This document shows, piece by piece, positions 2,882 to 54,020 of a stretch of 64,000 nt of DNA. Each line of letters opens with the position of its first letter. Positions within the stretch are counted from its first letter, which is position 1. Under the pieces are notes generated by a model. It was not told the origin of the DNA. It did no database searches and worked only from the letters and a program-made list of their open reading frames with translations. A program made the translations under genes and the position numbers. The stretch spans positions 310,029 to 374,028 of the forward strand of contig CAYVOI010000001.1 in the NCBI GenBank assembly GCA_964453605.1, written 5' to 3'. Source of the stretch: an uncultured Gammaproteobacteria bacterium. GTDB lineage: Bacteria > Patescibacteriota > Patescibacteriia > Veblenbacterales > UBA10138.

Positions 2882-3821
2882 CCGCACCTTGCCCGTAGTT
2901 GGGTTGGCCGCGTTGTTCAGCGTCTGGCCAGGGAGCCTGCGCTCTGCAGCCGCTGGGGTTGCTCTGTCGCCTCGGTTGCCGAGCTTAGGGGCGCAGGCCA
3001 TGCTGCCAGAGCCGATAGACTGGTCGCAGGTGCCGTCGCTTACGAGCCTTAACCTGTCAGCCTCCTCAGCGGTGGTCGTGCATCTGCCCGACGGCCGCCT
3101 GGTAGGGGCCTTGGACCCTGAGCACGTAAGGCCGCTGGCTTCGCTCACCAAGCTCATGACCGCGGTGGTGGCGATGGAGGTAGGGCCCAAGCTTGATGAG
3201 CTTGTCACGGTAACCCGTGCTGATAACACTGACTCGCTACTGCCGTACATGAACGCAGGGGATAAGATAAGCTACCTCTTTGTAGCTGATGGGCAGACAC
3301 TCCGGCTGCGGGACGCACTTACCGCCGCGCTGGTGGGTTCAGCCAACAACGCAGCAGCTACCTTGGCCCGGGTGAGCGGACTCTCGGCCGATGATTTTGT
3401 AGCCCGCATGAACACGCGGGCTCAAGTGTTGGGCATGTACGCTAGCCACTTTACCGAGAGCACGGGCCTAAGCCCGGCTAACACCAGCACCGCCTACGAC
3501 TACGCTATCCTGGCCCGCTACGCCTGGACCAACCGGACCCTCCGGCAGGTGTCGGGCTTGCCGCGGGCTACCTTTTCCAGTTCAGATGGCAAGGTGCACC
3601 ACATGCGGAACACCAACGCGCTGGTCACTAAGCCGCCCCCAGGGGTAACGCCACTCGCTAGCAAGACCGGCTACCTTACCGAGGCCGGCTACAACCTGGC
3701 GCTGGAGTGGAGGGCGCCAAACGGTAGTGAGTACCTGCTGGTGCTCATGAACGCGCCGTCGCTCACGGCCCGTTCAGCGGATGCGCTCAAGGTTATACGC
3801 TGGCTTCAAGCAAAAACCTGA
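2811..3821 (+). CDS. D-alanyl-D-alanine carboxypeptidase (peptidase S11, PBP5/6-like)
   Basis: Signal-peptide-like N-terminus. SxxK (ASLTK), SxN (GSANN) and KTG (SKTG) motifs. The 5' end overlaps the scpB stop, so the true start may be a downstream ATG (for example 2826). Confidence 0.75.
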   Translation: MQPCLSMPTLPTFSKLKNLALRLSRTLPVVGLAALFSVWPGSLRSAAAGVALSPRLPSLGAQAMLPEPIDWSQVPSLTSLNLSASSAVVVHLPDGRLVGALDPEHVRPLASLTKLMTAVVAMEVGPKLDELVTVTRADNTDSLLPYMNAGDKISYLFVADGQTLRLRDALTAALVGSANNAAATLARVSGLSADDFVARMNTRAQVLGMYASHFTESTGLSPANTSTAYDYAILARYAWTNRTLRQVSGLPRATFSSSDGKVHHMRNTNALVTKPPPGVTPLASKTGYLTEAGYNLALEWRAPNGSEYLLVLMNAPSLTARSADALKVIRWLQAKT

Positions 3822-5477: not shown

Positions 5478-6409
5478 TCGACGTGGTGCTGTGGGTAGTC
5501 CTCACCTTAAGCGTGGTGGGGCTTATTGGCTTGGTGGTACGTAAGCTCCCCGTACTCCGGGTGATAGACACAGCTCAGCTCAGCTCCGTAAATCAGAGCC
5601 TGCTCAAGCTGAAGCTCCTCGAGCAGCGCCTGAGGCGTAAGGTGCAGAGCCTCGTGCAACGAGCGAGCCGTAACCTGCCTGCCGCTGGTAAACTTATCGC
5701 CCGCCGTATGGGTAGTGTGCATCAGGTTTTTCAGGACGTGACGAGTCGAATAGAGCGTAAGCTAGAGCGGCACACCGCTGCGTCTGCCAGCGCGGCCGAC
5801 CTCATGGCCCAGGCTGAGGCCGCGCTGAAGAGTGGTGGCTACGAGACGGCTGAGGCTAAGTACCTCGCCGTCCTACGTAGTGATGCTCATAGCCTAGGAG
5901 CTTATGAAGGCTTGGGAGCAGTGTACCTGGATGCACGAGAGTACGAGCAGGCCAGGGAAGTGTTTGAGTACCTGGTGGGGAGGGGCGTGGACAGTGCCCA
6001 CCTGGGGCTGGCGCGCGCTAGCCTAGGGCAAGGCCAGCTCGAGCTGGCGCGCGCCGAGTACCAGCAGGCGCTGGCCCACCTCACGTCACCTCAGCTCCTG
6101 ATAGAACTGGCGCAAGTGCTCCAAGAGCTCGGCAACTCCACTGAGGCCTTTACCTACCTCAAAGAGGCTCGAGCGCTAGAACCCAAGAACCCTAAGCTCC
6201 TTGACTTTTACATCGAACTCAGTATAGTAACTGGGCAACCAATTGAAGCCCAAAGCGCCCTGGACGCTCTCCGCGAGGTAAACCCCGAGAACCAGAAGAT
6301 CCCCGAGCTAGCTCAGGCCGTGCGTAAGCTGGCGGACAAGCTGAAGCTCAAGCGGCCGCGCGCGGCCACGAGCACAACCTTTGGTGTGCCGACCAGGCGC
6401 AAGGCTTAA
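5471..6409 (+). CDS. Membrane-anchored TPR-repeat protein
   Basis: N-terminal TM helix. Repeated TPR-like A/L/Y/E pattern (AEAKYLAVL..., EYQQALAHL...). Confidence 0.55.
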   Translation: MVIDVVLWVVLTLSVVGLIGLVVRKLPVLRVIDTAQLSSVNQSLLKLKLLEQRLRRKVQSLVQRASRNLPAAGKLIARRMGSVHQVFQDVTSRIERKLERHTAASASAADLMAQAEAALKSGGYETAEAKYLAVLRSDAHSLGAYEGLGAVYLDAREYEQAREVFEYLVGRGVDSAHLGLARASLGQGQLELARAEYQQALAHLTSPQLLIELAQVLQELGNSTEAFTYLKEARALEPKNPKLLDFYIELSIVTGQPIEAQSALDALREVNPENQKIPELAQAVRKLADKLKLKRPRAATSTTFGVPTRRKA

Positions 6410-6415
6410 CAGTTC

Positions 6416-6648
6416 CTAGGCCGTTGTAATCGGGCTACAGGCCCTCATACATCGGCATCGTTCGGAAGAAATGAACCTCGGTTCATTTCGTTCCTCACTC
6501 GCCGTTGTAGCTTCCGCCTCCACTCTCGGCTTCGGCGGACAAGCAGCTGGCACGTACTTTGATAACGTTCCTTCACTATGGGGTTGAAGGTTTTCTTGAC
6601 CCGCTGCCTTGTGCCGATGTAGCTGGAGCTGGCCCCACCCCTTCTCTT
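6416..6648 (+). repeat. Degenerate tRNA-Thr 5'-end fragments and hairpins upstream of tRNA-Thr(GGU)
   Basis: gccgttgta / gccgatgta (tRNA-Thr 5' acceptor plus D start) recurs at about 6421, 6511 and 6621. The 6421 copy closes a minihelix (gccgttg..catcggc). A 9-bp hairpin gaaatgaac-ctcg-gttcatttc is also present. Confidence 0.4.
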
Positions 6649-6724
6649 GCCGTTGTAGCTCAGCTGGTAGAGCAACTCCATGGTAAGGAGTAGGTCGCCG
6701 GTTCAATTCCGGCCAACGGCTCCA
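6649..6724 (+). tRNA. tRNA-Thr (anticodon GGU)
   Basis: Cloverleaf: acceptor gccgttg/caacggc, D arm agctcagctggtagagc, anticodon loop atGGTaa, T arm gccggttcaattccggc, encoded CCA. Confidence 0.85.
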
Positions 6725-6792
6725 GAAGGGGTGGGGTAAATGGCGCAACTCCATGCTTGCCCAGTAGGGAATTGCAAAGCGATTCTGCTTCT

Positions 6793-6836
6793 GGGGTAAG
6801 GAGTAGGTCGCCGGTTCAATTCCGGCCATCGGCTCC
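6793..6836 (+). repeat. Partial duplicate of tRNA-Thr(GGU) 3' portion (anticodon-loop 3' side to CCA), 1 mismatch
   Basis: ggtaaggagtaggtcgccggttcaattccggccatcggctcca is near-identical to 6682..6724. No matching 5' acceptor strand upstream. Confidence 0.75.
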
Positions 6837-6928
6837 AGGCAGCGGGCCAAGCCGGCCACGGGCCGTAAAGCCCTCGCGGGCCCACGGCCCTTTACGAGGC
6901 TCCACGTTCCTTTTACGTTTTTGGTCTC

Positions 6929-7014
6929 GGGTGGGTATCGAAGTGGTCAAACGAGACTGACTGTAAATCAGTTGCCTTCGGGCTTCGCAGGTTCGAATCC
7001 TGCCCCACCCACCA
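6929..7014 (+). tRNA. tRNA-Tyr (anticodon GUA), class II long variable arm
   Basis: Acceptor gggtggg/cccaccc, anticodon loop ctGTAaa, long variable arm, T arm gcaggttcgaatcctgc, encoded CCA. Confidence 0.85.
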
Positions 7015-7087
7015 CGTAAAGCTCGCACAGCTCGCCATGTGGTATTAAAATAGTTGTAAGTGGTGCACCCCGTAGAGGTGCGTCAGC

Positions 7088-7123
7088 ACCTTCTTCGGGG
7101 TTCGAATCCTGCCCCACCCACCA
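7088..7123 (+). repeat. Partial duplicate of tRNA-Tyr 3' end (variable-arm remnant, T arm, acceptor, CCA)
   Basis: ggggttcgaatcctgccccacccacca is identical to the 3' 27 nt of the tRNA-Tyr at 6988..7014. Confidence 0.8.
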
Positions 7124-7191
7124 TTCGGCTCGCTTCGCTCGCTCATGGTAAACCAAGCGAGTCGAATGCCCCGAGCCGAGCCGAGGGGTTG
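7123..7191 (+). repeat. Hairpin plus conserved motif (gagtcgaatgcc ccgagccgagccgaggggttg) shared with the tRNA-Pro locus at 31928..32030
   Basis: 13-bp stem attcggctcgctt/aagcgagtcgaat with one G-U pair. The motif gagtcgaatgcc at 7159..7170 matches 31989..32000 exactly. Confidence 0.6.
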
Positions 7192-7206
7192 AAAAACAAG
7201 CGTGCT

Positions 7207-7407
7207 ATGGGTACACTATACTACGTTTATATGATGCGCTGCTCCGACGGTACGTTCTACGTCGGGATGACAGTCAACCTCGCGGCACGAGAAGCTCGTC
7301 ACATTCGAGGTGATGGCGCGAAGTTTACCAAGTCACATGGAGGAGAACGTATAGTATATCGAGAGCCACATGCTACGTATTTAACTGCACGGCGTAGAGA
7401 GATATAG
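7207..7407 (+). CDS. Stand-alone GIY-YIG nuclease domain protein (YhbQ/UPF0213-like)
   Basis: YYVYMMRCSDGTFYVGMTVNLAAREARH is a GIY-YIG motif; an ERIVYRE glutamate is present. About 66 aa from ATG 7207; the track ORF starts further upstream at an alternative codon. Confidence 0.7.
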   Translation: MGTLYYVYMMRCSDGTFYVGMTVNLAAREARHIRGDGAKFTKSHGGERIVYREPHATYLTARRREI

Positions 7408-7464
7408 ATAAAGAACTGGCGCCGCGAGAAGAAAGAACGTTTACTTTTAGGCCTTAAGCCGTAG

Positions 7465-7539
7465 GCCAGCGTAGCTCAGTGGTAGAGCAACTGTTTTGTA
7501 AACAGTAGGTCGTCGGTTCGACCCCGACCGCTGGCTCCA
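7465..7539 (+). tRNA. tRNA-Thr (anticodon UGU)
   Basis: Acceptor gccagcg/cgctggc, D arm gctcagtggtagagc, anticodon stem actgt/acagt with loop ttTGTaa, T arm gtcggttcgaccccgac, CCA. Flanked by gccttaag direct repeats. Confidence 0.85.
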
Positions 7540-7576
7540 GCCTTAAGTCATCTTATCCGTTTTTGTTTGCCCTCGT

Positions 7577-7732
7577 ATGTCGCAAGATAACCTCGTTAAG
7601 CTTGAGTGCAGTGTGTGTCACCGCATTACCTACCACACCTTCCGCAACAAGAAGAAGGTCAAGGCGCGGCTGGAAACCATGAAGCACTGCCCGTGGTGCA
7701 AGAAGCACACGCTCCACAAGGAGACGAAGTAG
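7577..7732 (+). CDS. rpmG: 50S ribosomal protein L33 (zinc-ribbon type)
   Basis: 51-aa ORF not in the ORF track (<60 aa). MSQDNLVKLECSVCHRITYHTFRNKKKVKARLETMKHCPWCKKHTLHKETK matches the L33 pattern (C-x2-C...C-x2-C and KHT.HKE.K). Confidence 0.85.
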   Translation: MSQDNLVKLECSVCHRITYHTFRNKKKVKARLETMKHCPWCKKHTLHKETK

Positions 7733-7757
7733 CTTACTACTGCCACGTCTCCCGTTT

Positions 7758-7831
7758 GGGGGGTTCGTTCAGTGGTAGGACTTCGGTCTCCAAAACCGAT
7801 AACGTGGGTTCGATTCCTACACCCCCTGCCA
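7758..7831 (+). tRNA. tRNA-Trp (anticodon CCA)
   Basis: Acceptor ggggggt/accccct (G1-U72 wobble), anticodon stem tcggt/accga with loop ctCCAaa, T arm gtgggttcgattcctac, encoded CCA. Confidence 0.85.
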
Positions 7832-7868
7832 TGAAAAATTCAGTGGATTGTTCCACTGGATTTTTCAT
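7832..7868. terminator. Perfect 17-bp-stem hairpin immediately 3' of tRNA-Trp
   Basis: atgaaaaattcagtgga-ttgt-tccactggatttttcat. A related hairpin follows the downstream partial tRNA-Trp copy at 7983..8018. Confidence 0.6.
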
Positions 7869-7956
7869 TGTGTGAGTAGGAATCGAAGGGCGCGAGATAG
7901 GCGAGCGAGTTGGCTCGAGCTCGCCTGAGTGTAGCGCCCAGGCCCCGAGTCGGAGC

Positions 7957-7982
7957 GAGGGGGATTCCTACACCCCCTGCCA
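7957..7982 (+). repeat. Partial duplicate of tRNA-Trp 3' end (T-loop 3' side, acceptor, CCA) preceded by gagtcggagcgaggggg
   Basis: attcctacaccccctgcca is identical to 7813..7831. The preceding GGGGG can pair with the CCCCC of the acceptor strand to form a minihelix. Confidence 0.8.
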
Positions 7983-8091
7983 GGAAAAAACAGTTCCACC
8001 TTGGGACTGCTTTTTCCTGATGGCTAACGAGGGATCGAAGGTCATGCCTATAGGTATACACTCTTTCGTTTAGGAGTGCTAGACTAGAGCT

Positions 8092-8508
8092 ATGCGAGCA
8101 GAGGCACTAAAGTATGTAGCTATACTAGGGTTGCTGGCTTTTCTGGCCGTGGGAGTTTTTGCTGCTGCTCATATTATGGAAATGCCGATGAATGAGCACG
8201 GTGTAATGACCGGCTGTTGGTTCACGGGCATGGCTGGCCCCTGCCCCATGACCCTGAGTGAACATGTGGCGTCTTGGCACAGCCTTTTCACTAGCGTTCC
8301 GACTACATCCGACACTTTGTCGCTCGTTGTACTCGTTCTAGCGGTATTGCTGGTAGTCCCGCGTTGGTTCGAACGATACCGCAGGTGGGTGGCGGCACGA
8401 CTGGCACTTCTCCCCAGACTGTACCTGAAGTATCACCCCAACCTGACTCTCGCCACTTCGCTACGGGAAGCATTTTCTCAGGGCATTCTCAATCCTAAAG
8501 TGTACTAG
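8092..8508 (+). CDS. Small membrane protein (138 aa)
   Basis: Two or three TM segments. No recognisable motif. Confidence 0.45.
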   Translation: MRAEALKYVAILGLLAFLAVGVFAAAHIMEMPMNEHGVMTGCWFTGMAGPCPMTLSEHVASWHSLFTSVPTTSDTLSLVVLVLAVLLVVPRWFERYRRWVAARLALLPRLYLKYHPNLTLATSLREAFSQGILNPKVY

Positions 8509-8528
8509 CTGGTAGCCAATCTTTATGC

Positions 8529-8554
8529 TTGCGTCTTCCGACGCAGGTTTTTTC
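8529..8554 (+). terminator. Rho-independent terminator
   Basis: tgcgtc-ttcc-gacgca followed by ggtttttt. Confidence 0.7.
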
Positions 8555-8577
8555 GTGACATTACTTACTAAAATTCT

Positions 8578-9396
8578 ATGGAAACATTTCCTCAAACCCA
8601 ATATTCAGAATCCAATTCCGTTCCTCAAGGTGCTGTACCAAGTATGTTCGCCGGTGCCTCGCCTAAACTCACCTTCATCATGGGTTTGGTGACCGGTATC
8701 GCCGTCGTTAGCCTGGCAGGCTTTGTACTAGCTGCCAGCTACGGCTTATCCGGTCGCGCTAGCAGTGCGCTCGGCTCTGCAACTGTAGCAGTCCAAGGCA
8801 CCACCACACCTACACCCTCTGCCGCACCCTCACCCACTTCGCCACCAGCTGCGCCAGGCAAGGCAAACGTCACCCTTAAGCCCGACGACCACATCCGTGG
8901 TCCCAAGGACGCCAAGGTAGTGCTCGTTGAGTACTCTGACCTTGAGTGCCCCTTCTGCAAACGCTTCCACCCCCAAATGCAGCAGCTCATGCAGGAGTTT
9001 TCCGGTCAGGTGGCCTGGGTGTACCGCCACTTCCCGCTCTCATTCCACCAGAACGCCGAGAAAGAGGCTGAGGCCGCAGAGTGCGTGGGTAAGCTCGGTG
9101 GTAATGATAAGTTTTGGGCTTATGTGAACAAGATATTTGAACGTACGACCTCGAACGGTACTGGCTTTGCTTTAGATAAACTAGGGCCGCTGGCGGCAGA
9201 AGTAGGGGTTTCCCAGGGTAAGTTCCAAAGCTGCCTTGATAGCGGCGAGTTTACGGCCCACGTGCAGCAGGACGAGCAGGAAGGCACGGCCTTTGGTGTG
9301 AACGGCACCCCCACTACGTTCGTGAACGGGCAGCCAGTTGAAGGCGCGGTACCCTATGAGCAGTTGAAGCAGGTGGTGCAGAGCTTACTGAAGTAG
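8578..9396 (+). CDS. Membrane-anchored DsbA-like thiol:disulfide oxidoreductase
   Basis: N-terminal TM helix, a Pro/Thr/Ser linker, and a thioredoxin-fold domain with CPFC active site (LECPFCKRFHP). DsbA-family pattern. Confidence 0.7.
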   Translation: METFPQTQYSESNSVPQGAVPSMFAGASPKLTFIMGLVTGIAVVSLAGFVLAASYGLSGRASSALGSATVAVQGTTTPTPSAAPSPTSPPAAPGKANVTLKPDDHIRGPKDAKVVLVEYSDLECPFCKRFHPQMQQLMQEFSGQVAWVYRHFPLSFHQNAEKEAEAAECVGKLGGNDKFWAYVNKIFERTTSNGTGFALDKLGPLAAEVGVSQGKFQSCLDSGEFTAHVQQDEQEGTAFGVNGTPTTFVNGQPVEGAVPYEQLKQVVQSLLK

Positions 9397-30722: not shown

Positions 30723-31154
30723 TTACGGCGTGACGGTTACCTTGCCGAAGTGGCTGGCGTTGAGGTGGTCGTGGAATCCCCAGGCGCCGGACTTGGTGAA
30801 GGTAAATGTCCAGCTTTGCCCAGGTGCAATACCCCGCCGCGGGTCAAATTCCGGGTAGTTGGTGTGGGTGGGGTGAGGAGCTGAGGCGGGCCAGTGGGGG
30901 AGTGCGCCGTTGTTCATAAACCTCACCGTATCGCCAACGGTAATGCTAAGCTGCGATGGAGTGAAGCCATCGTCGGTCATGCTGATGACGACCGTTTTTG
31001 GCTGATGAGCGGGAGGGGTAACCGTTGCCGGAGCATTGGTGTTGGTGACTGGCGTGGTGGTAGGTGGTGTAGCTGCCGGTGTTCCGCTGCAGGCGGCACC
31101 AACCAAGCTTAGCGTAGCCAGAGCACCTACGGTTACTAGGGAACGTTTGAACAT
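30723..31154 (-). CDS. Cupredoxin-like lipoprotein without Cys ligand (EfeO/cupredoxin-like)
   Basis: Lipobox LVGAACS, Thr/Pro linker, His-rich beta-domain (HWPASAPHPTH, FHDHL...HFGKVTV). Confidence 0.45.
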   Translation of the reverse strand: MFKRSLVTVGALATLSLVGAACSGTPAATPPTTTPVTNTNAPATVTPPAHQPKTVVISMTDDGFTPSQLSITVGDTVRFMNNGALPHWPASAPHPTHTNYPEFDPRRGIAPGQSWTFTFTKSGAWGFHDHLNASHFGKVTVTP

Positions 31155-31276
31155 ACGTTTCTGTTTAAGGATTAGCTTACCCAGTGTACCCTACGATTCA
31201 TAGGTGAGGCAATTATGATTATCGTCGGGTGGGCGTTGCCAGAGCACCGAGCTTTGGCTATACTACGCCTGTTGTA

Positions 31277-31301
31277 CGGGGTATGGCCTAACCCCGACGC
31301 C
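31277..31301 (+). repeat. Internally deleted tRNA-Pro remnant (5' acceptor/D start cggggtatggcctaa joined to 3' acceptor ccccgacgcc)
   Basis: The first 15 nt are identical to tRNA-Pro 31670..31684. The tail matches the 3' acceptor strand. Lies upstream of the GIY-YIG gene. Confidence 0.6.
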
Positions 31302-31386
31302 TGGGCGCCGACGCTGCGGTCGGCGTTCCGCACCAGAAGCGTCGGAATCGGGGCTCCGACAGCGGAGCTCGTCGGAGTTGGTTTAT

Positions 31387-31647
31387 ATGATAGGATATTT
31401 GTATATTTTGAAGAGCTCGCAAACGGGACGTTATTACGTCGGTAGTACGAATGATTTACGTCGGCGACTGGTTCAACATCACCAGGGCCAGACTGCAACA
31501 ACTAAACGTCTCGGCAAGTTTGAGTTAGTTTTTTCTCAGGAGTTTAGTTCGCTAGCAGAAGCGAGGCTAGCCGAACGCCGAGTAAAGGAGTGGAAACGAC
31601 GAGATTTTATTGAAAAAATTATCCGTGATGGTAGAATTAAAACTTAA
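31387..31647 (+). CDS. Stand-alone GIY-YIG nuclease domain protein (YhbQ/UPF0213-like)
   Basis: GYLYILKSSQTGRYYVGSTNDLRRRLVQHHQG plus a downstream ...ERRVKEW glutamate. ATG at 31387; the track start at 31378 is TTG. Confidence 0.7.
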   Translation: MIGYLYILKSSQTGRYYVGSTNDLRRRLVQHHQGQTATTKRLGKFELVFSQEFSSLAEARLAERRVKEWKRRDFIEKIIRDGRIKT

Positions 31648-31669
31648 CATGTGATGTTGAGGTAATTAT

Positions 31670-31745
31670 CGGGGTATGGCCTAATTGGTAAGGCGCACGC
31701 TTCGGGTGCGTGAGATTCTGGGTTCGAGTCCCAGTACCCCGACCA
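31670..31745 (+). tRNA. tRNA-Pro (anticodon CGG)
   Basis: Acceptor cggggta/taccccg, D arm gcctaattggtaaggc, anticodon stem cacgc/gcgtg with loop ttCGGgt, T arm ctgggttcgagtcccag, CCA. Confidence 0.8.
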
Positions 31746-31784
31746 GACAAATGCGCCGGTAGCGTTACTGGCGCATTTGTCTGC
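31746..31784 (+). terminator. 12-bp-stem hairpin immediately 3' of tRNA-Pro
   Basis: gacaaatgcgcc-ggtagcgttact-ggcgcatttgtc. Confidence 0.55.
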
Positions 31785-31795
31785 TGATTGGTAGT

Positions 31796-31812
31796 ATGGG
31801 ACTCGAAGGGTA
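31796..31812 (+). repeat. Inverted partial copy of the tRNA-Pro T-arm (gggactcgaa = reverse complement of ttcgagtccc)
   Basis: Same arrangement as the inverted T-arm copy gtaggaatcgaa (about 7873) after tRNA-Trp. Confidence 0.5.
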
Positions 31813-31908
31813 CTTTAGAAACGTAAACAGTTTTACGTTGCTAAAGACCCAGGCTTTGGCGGAGCGGTGAGTGTTGTGCTGTAAGCACCACGAGCCGCGG
31901 GGGAGAAG

Positions 31909-31928
31909 GAGTCCCAGTACCCCGACCA
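31909..31928 (+). repeat. Partial duplicate of tRNA-Pro 3' end (copy 1), preceded by gagccgcggggg
   Basis: gagtcccagtaccccgacca is identical to 31726..31745. Confidence 0.8.
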
Positions 31929-32030
31929 TTCGACTCGGCCTTCGACAAGCTCAGGCCTTGCCCATGGTCTACGACCTATAGATGAGCCGAGTCGAATGCC
32001 CTGAGCGAACGAAGTGAGTCGAGGGGCGCT
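31928..32030 (+). repeat. Long hairpin (attcgactcggc...gccgagtcgaat) plus motif gagtcgaatgccctgagc...gagtcgagggg
   Basis: 12-bp stem with a loop of about 46 nt. gagtcgaatgcc at 31989..32000 matches 7159..7170. Confidence 0.6.
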
Positions 32031-32047
32031 GCCCAATACCCCGACCA
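32031..32047 (+). repeat. Diverged partial duplicate of tRNA-Pro 3' end (copy 2)
   Basis: gcccaataccccgacca versus tcccagtaccccgacca. Confidence 0.6.
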
Positions 32048-32081
32048 GCTCCCTATTTTTATTGGTTGTCCTGTATCCCTG

Positions 32082-32786
32082 ATGAATTCCGCTGATCCAA
32101 AAATGTCACAACCTAAGCACGTAGCGGTGATTGTTGATGGCAACCGCCGCTGGGCGAAAGCAAAAAATCTTCCGAGTTTGGAGGGGCACCGGGCTGGCTA
32201 TACAAGGGTAAAAGAGCTTGCCCGCTGGCTGTTTGCTCGTGGGGTTAAGTTTGCCAGCTTCTACCTGTTCTCGCGCGAGAACTGGAATCGTTCGGCTGAG
32301 GAGGTGGCCTACCTGTTCAATTTACTGGACGATGGGTTAGAGCGCGATGTTAAAGATTTTGTGCGCGATGGCATTAGATTGCGGTTTGCTGGTAGCCGCA
32401 CTGAGCTGAAACCCCGTACCCAGAAGCTCATGCGCCAGGCCGAAGCTGAGACCGCGGCTGGCACCAAGGGCACTATTGTGGCCTGCATCAACTACGGCGG
32501 GCAGCAGGAGATTGTAGAGGGCGTGCGCAAACTTGCGGCCGAGGGAACGAATTTAGCCGAGCTCACACCCGAAGGCCTCAAAGCCGGGCTCACGACGGCC
32601 CAGGTGCCGCCGGTTGACTTAATGATTCGCACCTCGGGTGAGCAACGTATTTCGAATTTTCTGTTGTGGGAGCTGGCGTATGCTGAGCTCTATTTTACCC
32701 CCGTGCTGTTTCCTGATTTTTCTGAGAAAAATTTAGACGAGGCTTTAGTTTGGTACCACAGCCGCGAGCGGCGCTTCGGCAGTTGA
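32082..32786 (+). CDS. uppS: Undecaprenyl-diphosphate synthase (cis-prenyltransferase)
   Basis: HVAVIVDGNRRWA, FSRENWNR, and C-terminal RFG. The true start may be ATG 32103. Confidence 0.85.
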   Translation: MNSADPKMSQPKHVAVIVDGNRRWAKAKNLPSLEGHRAGYTRVKELARWLFARGVKFASFYLFSRENWNRSAEEVAYLFNLLDDGLERDVKDFVRDGIRLRFAGSRTELKPRTQKLMRQAEAETAAGTKGTIVACINYGGQQEIVEGVRKLAAEGTNLAELTPEGLKAGLTTAQVPPVDLMIRTSGEQRISNFLLWELAYAELYFTPVLFPDFSEKNLDEALVWYHSRERRFGS

Positions 32787-53794: not shown

Positions 53795-54020
53795 AGTGTT
53801 AGCTTAATTAACAAACAACCCAAACGATACGTGTCGTTTGGGTCCCGTAAAATTTGCTTTAGCTCACCACGGGAGGTTCCACCCATATTCCCCGTGGCCG
53901 TAAGGCTTTACGGGGCACTCTCAAGTTGTCTGTACGCTTAGTTCCGCCTAGACGGGAGCCCCTCGACAAGCTCGGGGCAAGCAGGTGGTAGCTGCCGCAA
54001 TCGCGTACAGGTGTAGCCTA
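53795..54020 (-). promoter_or_regulatory. T-box-like leader upstream of thrS
   Basis: On the - strand, AAUAUGGGUGGAACCUCCCGUGG (reverse complement of 53867..53891) resembles the T-box consensus AAUUAGGGUGGUACCGCGG. It is followed by a terminator hairpin cccaaacgacacgtatcgtttggg plus a U-run, immediately before the start codon. Confidence 0.5.

Follow-up and report, generated by a model that had tools for sequence, protein, structure and literature searches.

We examined a stretch of 64,000 nucleotides (hereafter, the window; contig CAYVOI010000001.1) from an uncultured bacterium of the Patescibacteriota, focusing on the region downstream of its tRNA-Tyr gene, which holds a second copy of the tRNA 3' end and a small gene for a GIY-YIG nuclease. 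An earlier note, made from the nucleotide sequence, had listed this copy, a hairpin, a conserved motif and the nuclease gene. The locus comprises the following features:

6929..7014, forward strand: intact tRNA-Tyr(GUA), CCA encoded (ARAGORN; Rfam RF00005, 63 bits)
7015..7098, forward strand: E1, the 84-nt spacer between tRNA-Tyr and the 3' copy, with a GGTGC/GCACC hairpin and then TTCTTC (fold z = -2.1)
7099..7123, forward strand: 25-nt exact repeat of the tRNA-Tyr 3' end and left boundary of the GIY-YIG unit (repeat family D3, 25/25)
7122..7168, forward strand: module M, a hairpin directly after CCA (TTCGGCTCG...CGAGTCGAA; fold z = -4.6)
7165..7192, forward strand: stem-loop B (SL-B), GCCCC-GAGCCGAGCCGA-GGGGT, the motif of the earlier note (covariance model match, 30.9 bits)
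7207..7464, forward strand: family-B GIY-YIG gene (GIY1; Pfam), with an in-frame TAG at 7405-7407 and a second TAG at 7462-7464
7465..7539, forward strand: intact tRNA-Thr(UGU), the right boundary of the unit (ARAGORN; Rfam)

The last 25 nt of tRNA-Tyr (6990-7014; GGTTCGAATCCTGCCCCACCCACCA), which span the T-loop, the 3' strands of the T-stem and the acceptor stem, and CCA, are found again at 7099-7123. The repeat is exact, as had been claimed, and is 25 rather than 27 nt long, with a gap of 84 nt; the bases just before it are CA in tRNA-Tyr and GG in the copy. The chance expectation for an exact repeat of this length in the 1.8-kb region is ~1e-9. Folding bore out the hairpin that had been noticed after the copy: module M forms a 14-bp stem (7122-7135 with 7155-7168) that includes one G-U pair and is predicted at -21.7 kcal/mol (fold of 7121-7170; the z score is relative to shuffles). 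The motif that follows the hairpin, GAGTCGAATGCC-CCGAGCCGAGCCGAGGGG, was borne out as well, with GAGTCGAATGCC occurring exactly at 7159 and 31989, and the GCCCCGAG..CGAGGGG part again at 7942 and 31998. Homologous copies of module M were detected at 31929-31999 of the window and in two loci from other genomes (L089, 8237-8329; L126, 53-143).

The open reading frame (ORF) at 7207-7407, previously described as a stand-alone nuclease gene of about 66 aa, does encode a GIY-YIG domain (Pfam PF01541, 36.5 bits), but is stopped early by an in-frame TAG. Upon read-through to 7462-7464 the score rises to 45.9 bits, the conserved C-terminal helix IKNWRREKKERL is restored, and the frame closes at the second TAG, immediately 5' of tRNA-Thr(UGU) at 7465. 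In the family alignment, GIY1 retains 15 of the 15 invariant residues, four of them beyond the first TAG; Y8, Y18, G20, R28, H32 and E65 are kept. With all invariant residues in place, and with Q, E, A or K at the position of the TAG in homologues (P0064 reads RRREIQIKNWRREKKENL), GIY1 is most likely a recent pseudogene.

Exactly two GIY-YIG genes are present in the window, and given that their products are only 31% identical, we treat them as two families, A (GIY2, at tRNA-Pro) and B (GIY1, at tRNA-Tyr). The read-through GIY1 protein has 85 aa and consists of the catalytic domain only (homologues have 75-130 aa). Compared with the structures in PDB, the family-B profile (alignment A4, with GIY1 as the first row) matched 1zg2 (BH0048; E = 4.6e-27) and 1ywl (E = 4.1e-23), and family A matched 1zg2 (E = 3e-16); for both families, the next-best matches after UPF0213 were SLX1 and then the I-TevI catalytic domain. 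The proteins share the single domain of ~80-100 aa, the C-terminal RRRExxIKxWxRxKK helix and the similarity to BH0048/EF2693 that characterize the UPF0213/YhbQ family. There was no specific NCBIfam match for either family; the group I intron endonuclease model TIGR01453 scored 22 bits against a cutoff of 56; and in PADLOC, GIY1 had no match and GIY2 matched only at E > 0.002, over the GIY motif.

No tyrosine or serine recombinase gene was found in the 450-bp interval between tRNA-Tyr and tRNA-Thr(UGU), where the GIY-YIG gene is the sole ORF with a domain match. No match to the group I intron model RF00028 was detected in window positions 5500-9000 or 31000-32300 at E <= 1, and no Rfam family matched module M, SL-B or the double hairpin of family A described below. 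The spacer E1 has no significant similarity to module M, to the other units, to the corresponding spacer of the relatives or to the rest of tRNA-Tyr; explanations of E1 by decay of a family-B unit or by divergence of a tRNA-Tyr 3' half were rejected (z <= 2.1; 397 of 500 shuffles scored at least equally well).

Family-B units in other genomes and the site in relatives

The layout of a tRNA 3' end, a hairpin, SL-B (loop GAGCGAAGTCGA) and a UPF0213-type GIY-YIG ORF is found at five other, unrelated loci; complete units also have an inverted SL-B and another tRNA 3' fragment, with its start in the T-loop. In L126, the tRNA 3' end (...GGGTCCA) is followed by CTCGACTCG...CGAGTCGAGTG, the SL-B CCCCGAGCGAAGTCGAGGGG, 8 nt and the ATG. 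The L125 unit consists of tRNA-Ser(UGA), a hairpin, the SL-B CCCTGAGCGAAGCGAATGG, the ORF, 9 nt and a 17-nt tRNA 3' fragment (16/17 positions), with the inverted motif lying within the last codons of the ORF. One L124 unit runs from tRNA-Ser(GCU) through the motif, the ORF and the inverted motif to a 14/14 fragment; the other has a tRNA-Ser-like fragment without an adjoining tRNA. Two tandem units follow tRNA-Ser in L077 (Zixibacteria), separated by a 17/17 fragment, and the GIY1 unit resembles the second of these. In L076, the ORF lies between an inverted motif pair, together with a tRNA-Ser-like fragment, away from any tRNA. Across family B, the tRNA fragments usually start inside the T-loop, at TTC|GA. 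An ORF-less module M stands directly after the CCA of both tRNA-Tyr and tRNA-Thr in L089; the unit reads TTCGACTC...CTCATGGTCT...GAGTCGAATGCCCTGAGCGAAC.GAGTGAG.CGAAGGG, and its right part matches window positions 31989-32027 at 36 of 39 positions (manual count), in genomes with FBA aldolases only 42% identical. Because the same order recurs in these loci, the four items at the tRNA-Tyr gene, namely the 3' copy, the hairpin, the motif and the gene, are one family-B unit.

Almost no variation is seen in the SL-B loop, GAGC(g/t)(a/t)(a/g)GTCGA, and substitutions in the SL-B stem are compensating, yielding variants such as CCCC/GGGG, CCCT/AGGG, CACTTT/AAAGTG and ATCTC/GAGAT. In a hand-made alignment of 12 copies (A3), 85% of the cells are paired, a value that none of 500 shuffles reached; the shuffles gave 66% and slid controls at most 54%. 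The four inner pairs switch from CG to UA in 3-6 of the 12 sequences. SL-B stands directly upstream of the family-B ATG in L076, L077, L126, L056, L067 and L069, and copies in forward and reverse-complement orientation flank complete units (L076, L077, L124, L125); the unit at tRNA-Tyr has the forward copy only. In Ignavibacteria, Bacteroidota and others (L056 2370-2920, L059, L067, L069), arrays of SL-B in alternating orientation surround family-B genes with no tRNA nearby. Elsewhere in the window, a reverse-orientation SL-B-like hairpin (CCCC-TCGACAAGCTCG-GGGG) occurs at 53960-53978, in a 345-nt intergenic region without a tRNA or an Rfam match.

These arrangements bring up the main rival to the explanation preferred below, a hairpin-end, transposon-like mechanism. 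Under this scenario, the hairpins (the forward and reverse-complement SL-B pair, or the double hairpin of family A) would be transposon ends, the GIY-YIG protein would act like a transposase or a nuclease associated with repetitive extragenic palindromic (REP) sequences on folded single-stranded DNA, the tRNA duplications would be long target-site duplications or repair products, and the D- and T-loops would be preferred as look-alike targets (TCGAA in SL-B, TTCGAA in the T-loop). The ORFs flanked by inverted SL-B copies (L076, L077, L124, L125), the arrays of alternating hairpins at family-B genes outside the Candidate Phyla Radiation (CPR; L056, L059), the units with tRNA-Ser 3' fragments away from any tRNA (L076 and the first unit of L124), and the covariation of stems around conserved loops or cores are all as expected for such an element. 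However, the tRNA duplications range from 14 to 54 nt, unlike fixed target duplications, no transposase family is present, and whole replacement tRNAs of a different allele (see below) are hard to make by transposition. To our knowledge, strand transfer is not known for GIY-YIG enzymes, which also counts against this mechanism, and we consider it unlikely. The cassettes do resemble REP sequences and bacterial interspersed mosaic elements with their REP-associated tyrosine transposases, as well as miniature inverted-repeat transposable elements (PMC3733652, PMC3184786), in the small GC-rich palindromes of alternating orientation, the presence of one small nuclease-type gene and the excess of ORF-less derivatives over autonomous copies. 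They differ from the REP systems in that the protein belongs to the GIY-YIG family rather than to the HUH/Y1 transposases and the repeats lie at tRNA segments, with tRNA duplications.

The orthologous site was identified in two relatives (L079, L095), found by a metagenome scan with the neighboring aldolase FBA (66-69% identical). Both have the same order of genes, tRNA-Thr(GGU), tRNA-Tyr, tRNA-Thr(UGU), L33 and tRNA-Trp, but the gap between tRNA-Tyr and tRNA-Thr(UGU) is 83 nt, compared to 450 nt in the window, and contains no tRNA-Tyr copy, hairpin, SL-B or GIY-YIG gene. The search for empty sites suggested in the earlier note thus found them. The same note had named two observations that would speak against an inserted element, a duplicated 3' end shared by the relatives and a GIY-YIG gene never linked to tRNA fragments elsewhere; instead, the layout recurs at tRNA fragments in unrelated genomes (L077, L124, L125, L126), and L079 and L095 lack all the parts. 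That the units are insertions is well supported.

Other tRNA loci of the window and family A

Fragment copies, overlooked in the earlier note, also follow tRNA-Thr(GGU), tRNA-Trp and tRNA-Pro, so that with tRNA-Tyr, four of the five tRNA genes of the window carry them; the spacers of the tRNA-end copies are 70-165 nt long. The corresponding loci are:

6613..6838, forward strand: nested tRNA-Thr(GGU) locus (repeat families D1, I1 and I2; 1 of 500 shuffles reached its score)
7832..8045, forward strand: two ORF-less family-B-like units after tRNA-Trp (7758-7831) (repeat families D2, D8, I3 and I4; SL-B 24.7 bits)
31277..32047, forward strand: tRNA-Pro(CGG) locus with a family-A cassette (GIY-YIG gene P0001)

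At the first of these, an intact tRNA-Thr(GGU) (6649-6724) lies inside the halves of another allele, the 5' half at 6613-6632 and the 3' half at 6744-6757 and 6795-6838, and is bracketed by a 13-bp leader/trailer helix (6633-6645 with 6724-6736). The alleles differ by a compensating acceptor pair, gccgAtg (6613) with caTcggc (6795-6838). Additional 5' fragments were noticed within 6420-6851, at 6501-6512 and near 6421. In both of two independent Logan assemblies of the genome, the contig (L001 or L002) ends inside tRNA-Thr(GGU), at window position ~6675; these breaks are probably caused by the repeated tRNA segments.

L079 and L095 have the tRNA-Thr(GGU) nest as well, with the acceptor alleles in exchanged positions, and the flanking helix covaries between them and the window (CCCCGCCACCTC/GAGGTGGCGGGG against CCCCACCCCTTCT/AGAAGGGGTGGGG). 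All that is left in the relatives of the tRNA-Thr(UGU) allele of the window (GCCAGCG...) is 23 nt of its 5' end and a remnant of its 3' end, which, with a small hairpin, surround a different intact allele (GCCGTCC...), and tRNA-Trp of the relatives is followed by a window-like tRNA-Trp 3' part broken up by small palindromes. This allele debris fits repeated replacement of tRNA genes by incoming alleles. The locus is near-identical in L079 (7440-7470) and L095 (1815-1845), except that in L079 the T-arm of the pseudo tRNA-Thr(GGU) 3' part is swapped for the hairpin TCCCGCGTTCGCGGGA; the pseudo tRNA-Trp 3' part of L095 (2500-2640) contains three small palindromes (e.g., CTGCCTGCCGGCAGGCAGG); and in L034 and L050, a CCGAYG hairpin takes the place of the anticodon arm in pseudo-tRNA copies.

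Downstream of tRNA-Trp, the units comprise hairpins at 7831-7868 and 7981-8019, SL-B at 7939-7966, a 3' fragment at 7963-7986, and AGGRATCGAAGG at 7878 and 8030. The two tRNA-Trp 3' ends each have their own terminator-like hairpin, different in sequence and alike in structure. The 'anti-T-arm' sequences that follow tRNA-Trp and tRNA-Pro were not accepted as T-arm complements, because degenerate SL-B copies explain them better.

Local tandem duplication or replication slippage within the tRNA cluster, without any element, would account for direct repeats that are short and near each other. It does not account for sequence between the repeats that is unrelated to tRNA and contains conserved modules found in other phyla, nor for fragment alleles that differ from the intact gene by compensating changes; the fit is poor, and slippage retains hardly any probability.

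Another possibility is that the tRNA-Tyr copy is the scar of an integrase-borne island or prophage that entered at the tRNA 3' end and was later nearly all deleted, with the GIY-YIG gene an unrelated neighbor. Integrative elements at tRNA genes regenerate an intact tRNA, with part of the gene, its 3' or less often its 5' portion, left at the opposite end of the element (Reiter 1989 and Williams 2002, cited in PMC9897764), so that the partial 3' copy resembles a classic attR footprint, and the T-loop, where the repeat starts, is a known integrase sublocation. The cassettes likewise keep the tRNA intact, leave a partial copy and have junctions in the T-loop or the anticodon/D region. Unlike integrase elements, however, they encode no tyrosine or serine recombinase, their sole gene is for an 85-aa GIY-YIG domain, they contain conserved hairpin modules and sometimes a whole replacement tRNA, and their size is 0.1-0.6 kb rather than 9-23 kb or more; the 450-bp interval is too small for an integrase gene. 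In addition, the order of copy, hairpin, motif and GIY-YIG gene recurs in unrelated genomes, and four of the five tRNA genes of the window have such copies, with spacers of just 70-165 nt. The scar explanation fits the data poorly and is very improbable; of the integrating-element footprint proposed in the earlier note, the inserted element stands, with the GIY-YIG gene as part of it.

Alternatively, the parts might serve the host, with module M, SL-B and the mini-helix copy acting as RNA processing, termination or decoy signals co-transcribed with the tRNAs, and the small GIY-YIG protein being a housekeeping repair nuclease expressed from tRNA operons. All parts of the unit have the same orientation as the tRNAs, module M is joined to CCA without a gap, module M and SL-B are conserved between genomes with FBA only 42% identical, and the G-U pair retained at one position of the helix suits an RNA. 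Nevertheless, the parts are missing in L079 and L095 despite the shared tRNA cluster, both orientations occur, the ORFs are often lost or broken, the identity of the tRNA varies widely, and nested allele replacements are seen. A host RNA device therefore also matches the data poorly and is, in our assessment, quite improbable.

The tRNA-Pro(CGG) locus combines a family-A cassette, inserted in the D-loop, with ORF-less family-B modules. A 5' fragment of the tRNA (positions 1-15; 31277-31291) is followed by a double hairpin (HP) with CCGAC/GTCGG cores (31292-31375), the TTGGT remainder of the D-loop, the GIY2 gene (P0001; 31387-31647) and the intact tRNA (31670-31745). Downstream lie a 3' fragment (31909-31928; 20/20), module M with SL-B and no ORF (31929-32027), and another 3' fragment (32028-32047; 16/20).

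A scan for family A with one genome per species yielded 62 loci, whose hosts are mostly Saccharibacteria, Paceibacterota and other CPR bacteria, with a few Omnitrophota, Planctomycetales, Acidobacteriota and Chitinophagaceae. Ten of the 62 were family-B-like with no tRNA near; with L004 and L006 added, the family-A loci number 54. A tRNA on the same strand begins at -39 to +32 nt relative to the stop codon in 41 of the 54 loci, and in 13 of these the stop codon is U8-A9-G10 (TAG) of the tRNA itself (e.g., L004 3261-3270, L011, L022, L024, L025), so that RNase P cleavage of a co-transcript would leave an mRNA without a stop codon. Four or five further loci are of a mirror (3') type, in which the ORF comes immediately after the tRNA and its ATG overlaps CCA. 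Altogether, the ORF abuts a tRNA in 45 of the 54 loci, and all but two of the others have a tRNA within 330 nt or are degenerate. The tRNA partners represent at least 20 anticodon types, and the nearest relative of an ORF is usually found at the same tRNA type. The family is large (2,296 clusters at 50% identity, E <= 1e-10), and all its members are short proteins; no close relative was found in IMG/VR, so that a phage origin is unsupported.

In 26 of 45 loci, a stretch of 11 nt or more from the tRNA 5' end reappears without a mismatch 50-110 nt upstream of the ATG, and the double hairpin begins right after it. The CCGAC/GTCGG cores of this hairpin have covarying flanks, and its inner hairpins vary. 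In 16 of 41 loci, there is also a 3' fragment, located 60-180 nt downstream. Three loci (L009, L014 and L018) have a pseudo-copy downstream with the order GCTCAG | hairpins | TTGGT | AGAGC...3' end and a copy upstream with the order 1-16 | hairpins | TTGGTA...ATG, which places the hairpin module exactly in the D-loop, between GCTCAG and TTGGT; here the ORF together with the intact tRNA is enclosed by two directly repeated hairpin copies. The mirror-type locus L020 has the order tRNA, ORF, hairpins and 35-nt 3' fragment. In both types, the ORF adjoins the intact tRNA and the hairpins adjoin the leftover fragment, an order that would be produced exactly by Campbell-type recombination or by repair copied from a filled donor.

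In L006 (3001-3575), the family-A ORF runs into a tRNA-His(GUG)-like tRNA that has a group I intron in its anticodon loop (RF00028, 41.9 bits, 3294-3531) and is not called by ARAGORN; this intron served as the positive control for the search of the window.

GIY1 as a 5'-type cassette of tRNA-Thr(UGU) was considered and rejected: there is no tRNA-Thr 5' fragment or CCGAC hairpin upstream of it, and in every family-B unit elsewhere a tRNA 3' end comes first.

Nature and proposed spread of the cassettes

We interpret the region 7099-7464 as a decayed copy of a tRNA-targeting GIY-YIG cassette of family B, with a probability of about 0.68. Such cassettes are common in CPR bacteria, and the unit at tRNA-Tyr is an ordinary decayed member, as indicated by the nonsense codon in GIY1; ORF-less units at tRNA-Trp and tRNA-Pro are further signs of decay. 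A complete family-B cassette consists of a tRNA 3' segment from the T-loop to CCA, module M, SL-B, a stand-alone GIY-YIG gene of the UPF0213/YhbQ-Slx1 type (~85 aa), an inverted SL-B and a second 3' segment, and occupies the T-loop (TTC|GA) of a tRNA gene, a position that leaves the tRNA whole and makes the duplicated 3' segment the mark of the junction. Family A places its CCGAC/GTCGG double hairpin and ORF in the D-loop, between GCTCAG and TTGGT, and sometimes brings a whole replacement tRNA, with the halves of the old gene remaining on both sides.

As a tentative mechanism, with the odds running against it, we propose nuclease-triggered, homing-like recombination. The nuclease would cut or nick conserved tRNA-gene DNA, in the D-loop for family A and in the T-loop for family B, or its own hairpins, and recombinational repair from a filled copy would spread the cassette, with the tRNA segments providing the homology arms. 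Depending on which sequences the broken ends pair with, the product could be a full cassette, a 5'-only form or an ORF-less form of tRNA, spacer and 3' fragment, all three of which are seen. Insertion beside or inside a tRNA gene would allow the tRNA promoter to drive the ORF.

Several points weigh against the cassette interpretation. Cleavage, a target site and a mobile intermediate are all putative. The proteins of both families have no recognizable DNA-binding domain, leaving site specificity unexplained. Look-ups of the exact GIY1 protein (66 aa and 115 aa) returned no record, so that the TAG is read from a single assembly. The relatives with the empty site are distant, at 66-69% identity in the glycolytic enzyme FBA, and the comparison with them is not one within a population. 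Outside CPR, family-B genes are often not located beside tRNAs (L056, L059, L067, L069, L070), so that tRNA targeting is limited to some lineages. As for the locus itself, the 84-nt E1 fits no tested part of a cassette, and the right-hand inverted SL-B and second 3' fragment are missing from the GIY1 unit, so that the direct repeat of the tRNA 3' segment is represented there by the left repeat only.

The broader class has features of several known systems, and each of the mobile-element and intron systems compared here fails at least one tested defining feature; only the membership of the proteins in the UPF0213 family is supported. Seg proteins are ~200 aa or longer and have a DNA-binding domain. 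The resemblance to T4 segB drawn in the earlier note is accordingly a loose analogy only: the cassette proteins are catalytic-domain-only members of UPF0213 (85 aa for GIY1, of the UPF0213/YhbQ type), whereas Seg enzymes are phage-borne and come without tRNA fragment duplications. What is shared is a GIY-YIG gene among tRNA genes, SegB being a homing endonuclease encoded in the T4 tRNA cluster (PMC2330249), and a spread presumed to proceed via cleavage of the element-free allele and recombinational repair. The cassette proteins belong to the same sequence family as UPF0213/YhbQ (COG2827) and Slx1, but in the papers searched, tRNA linkage, hairpin modules and mobility are not described for that family. 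Like the tRNA group I introns of Patescibacteria (PMC13011429), the cassettes are selfish DNA that inserts into tRNA genes of CPR bacteria and leaves the tRNA functional, but they contain no ribozyme, and function is maintained not by splicing but in the DNA, where the tRNA sequence is duplicated or replaced. Ty3 and TRE5-A, retrotransposons of compact eukaryotic genomes (PMC5006619), likewise exploit tRNA genes, which are safe and conserved targets among densely packed genes; unlike the cassettes, these elements use reverse transcription and targeting through Pol III factors, and insert upstream or downstream, with the gene untouched.

The known kind to which the cassettes can be assigned is that of selfish elements using tRNA genes; the cassette class itself appears undescribed, and the full-text literature, subscription-only papers not covered, yielded no description of GIY-YIG cassettes at tRNA genes. 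They may represent a new and widespread class of minimal selfish elements, each made up of one UPF0213-type GIY-YIG nuclease of ~85 aa and a hairpin module, that homes into the two segments conserved in all bacterial tRNA genes, the D-loop (family A) and the T-loop (family B), and spares the host by bringing along a replacement tRNA part or a whole tRNA, such that foreign alleles repeatedly overwrite tRNA genes and leave nested, 'Russian-doll' arrays of tRNA halves, a view to which we give slightly less than even odds.

If this view holds, the cassettes would be among the smallest autonomous mobile elements, at ~0.3-0.45 kb with an 85-aa nuclease, and would have a new way for a homing-type element to reside inside an essential gene, by gene replacement at the DNA level rather than by RNA or protein splicing. 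They would explain the tRNA fragments around CPR tRNA genes, the assembly breaks at these sites, and the spurious or missing genes produced by tRNA predictors. The nucleases may recognize the D-loop or T-loop DNA common to nearly all tRNA genes, and such specificity in a tiny protein would be of interest to enzymologists and tool builders. For the bacteria themselves, the cassettes would imply lateral replacement of tRNA alleles in very reduced genomes.

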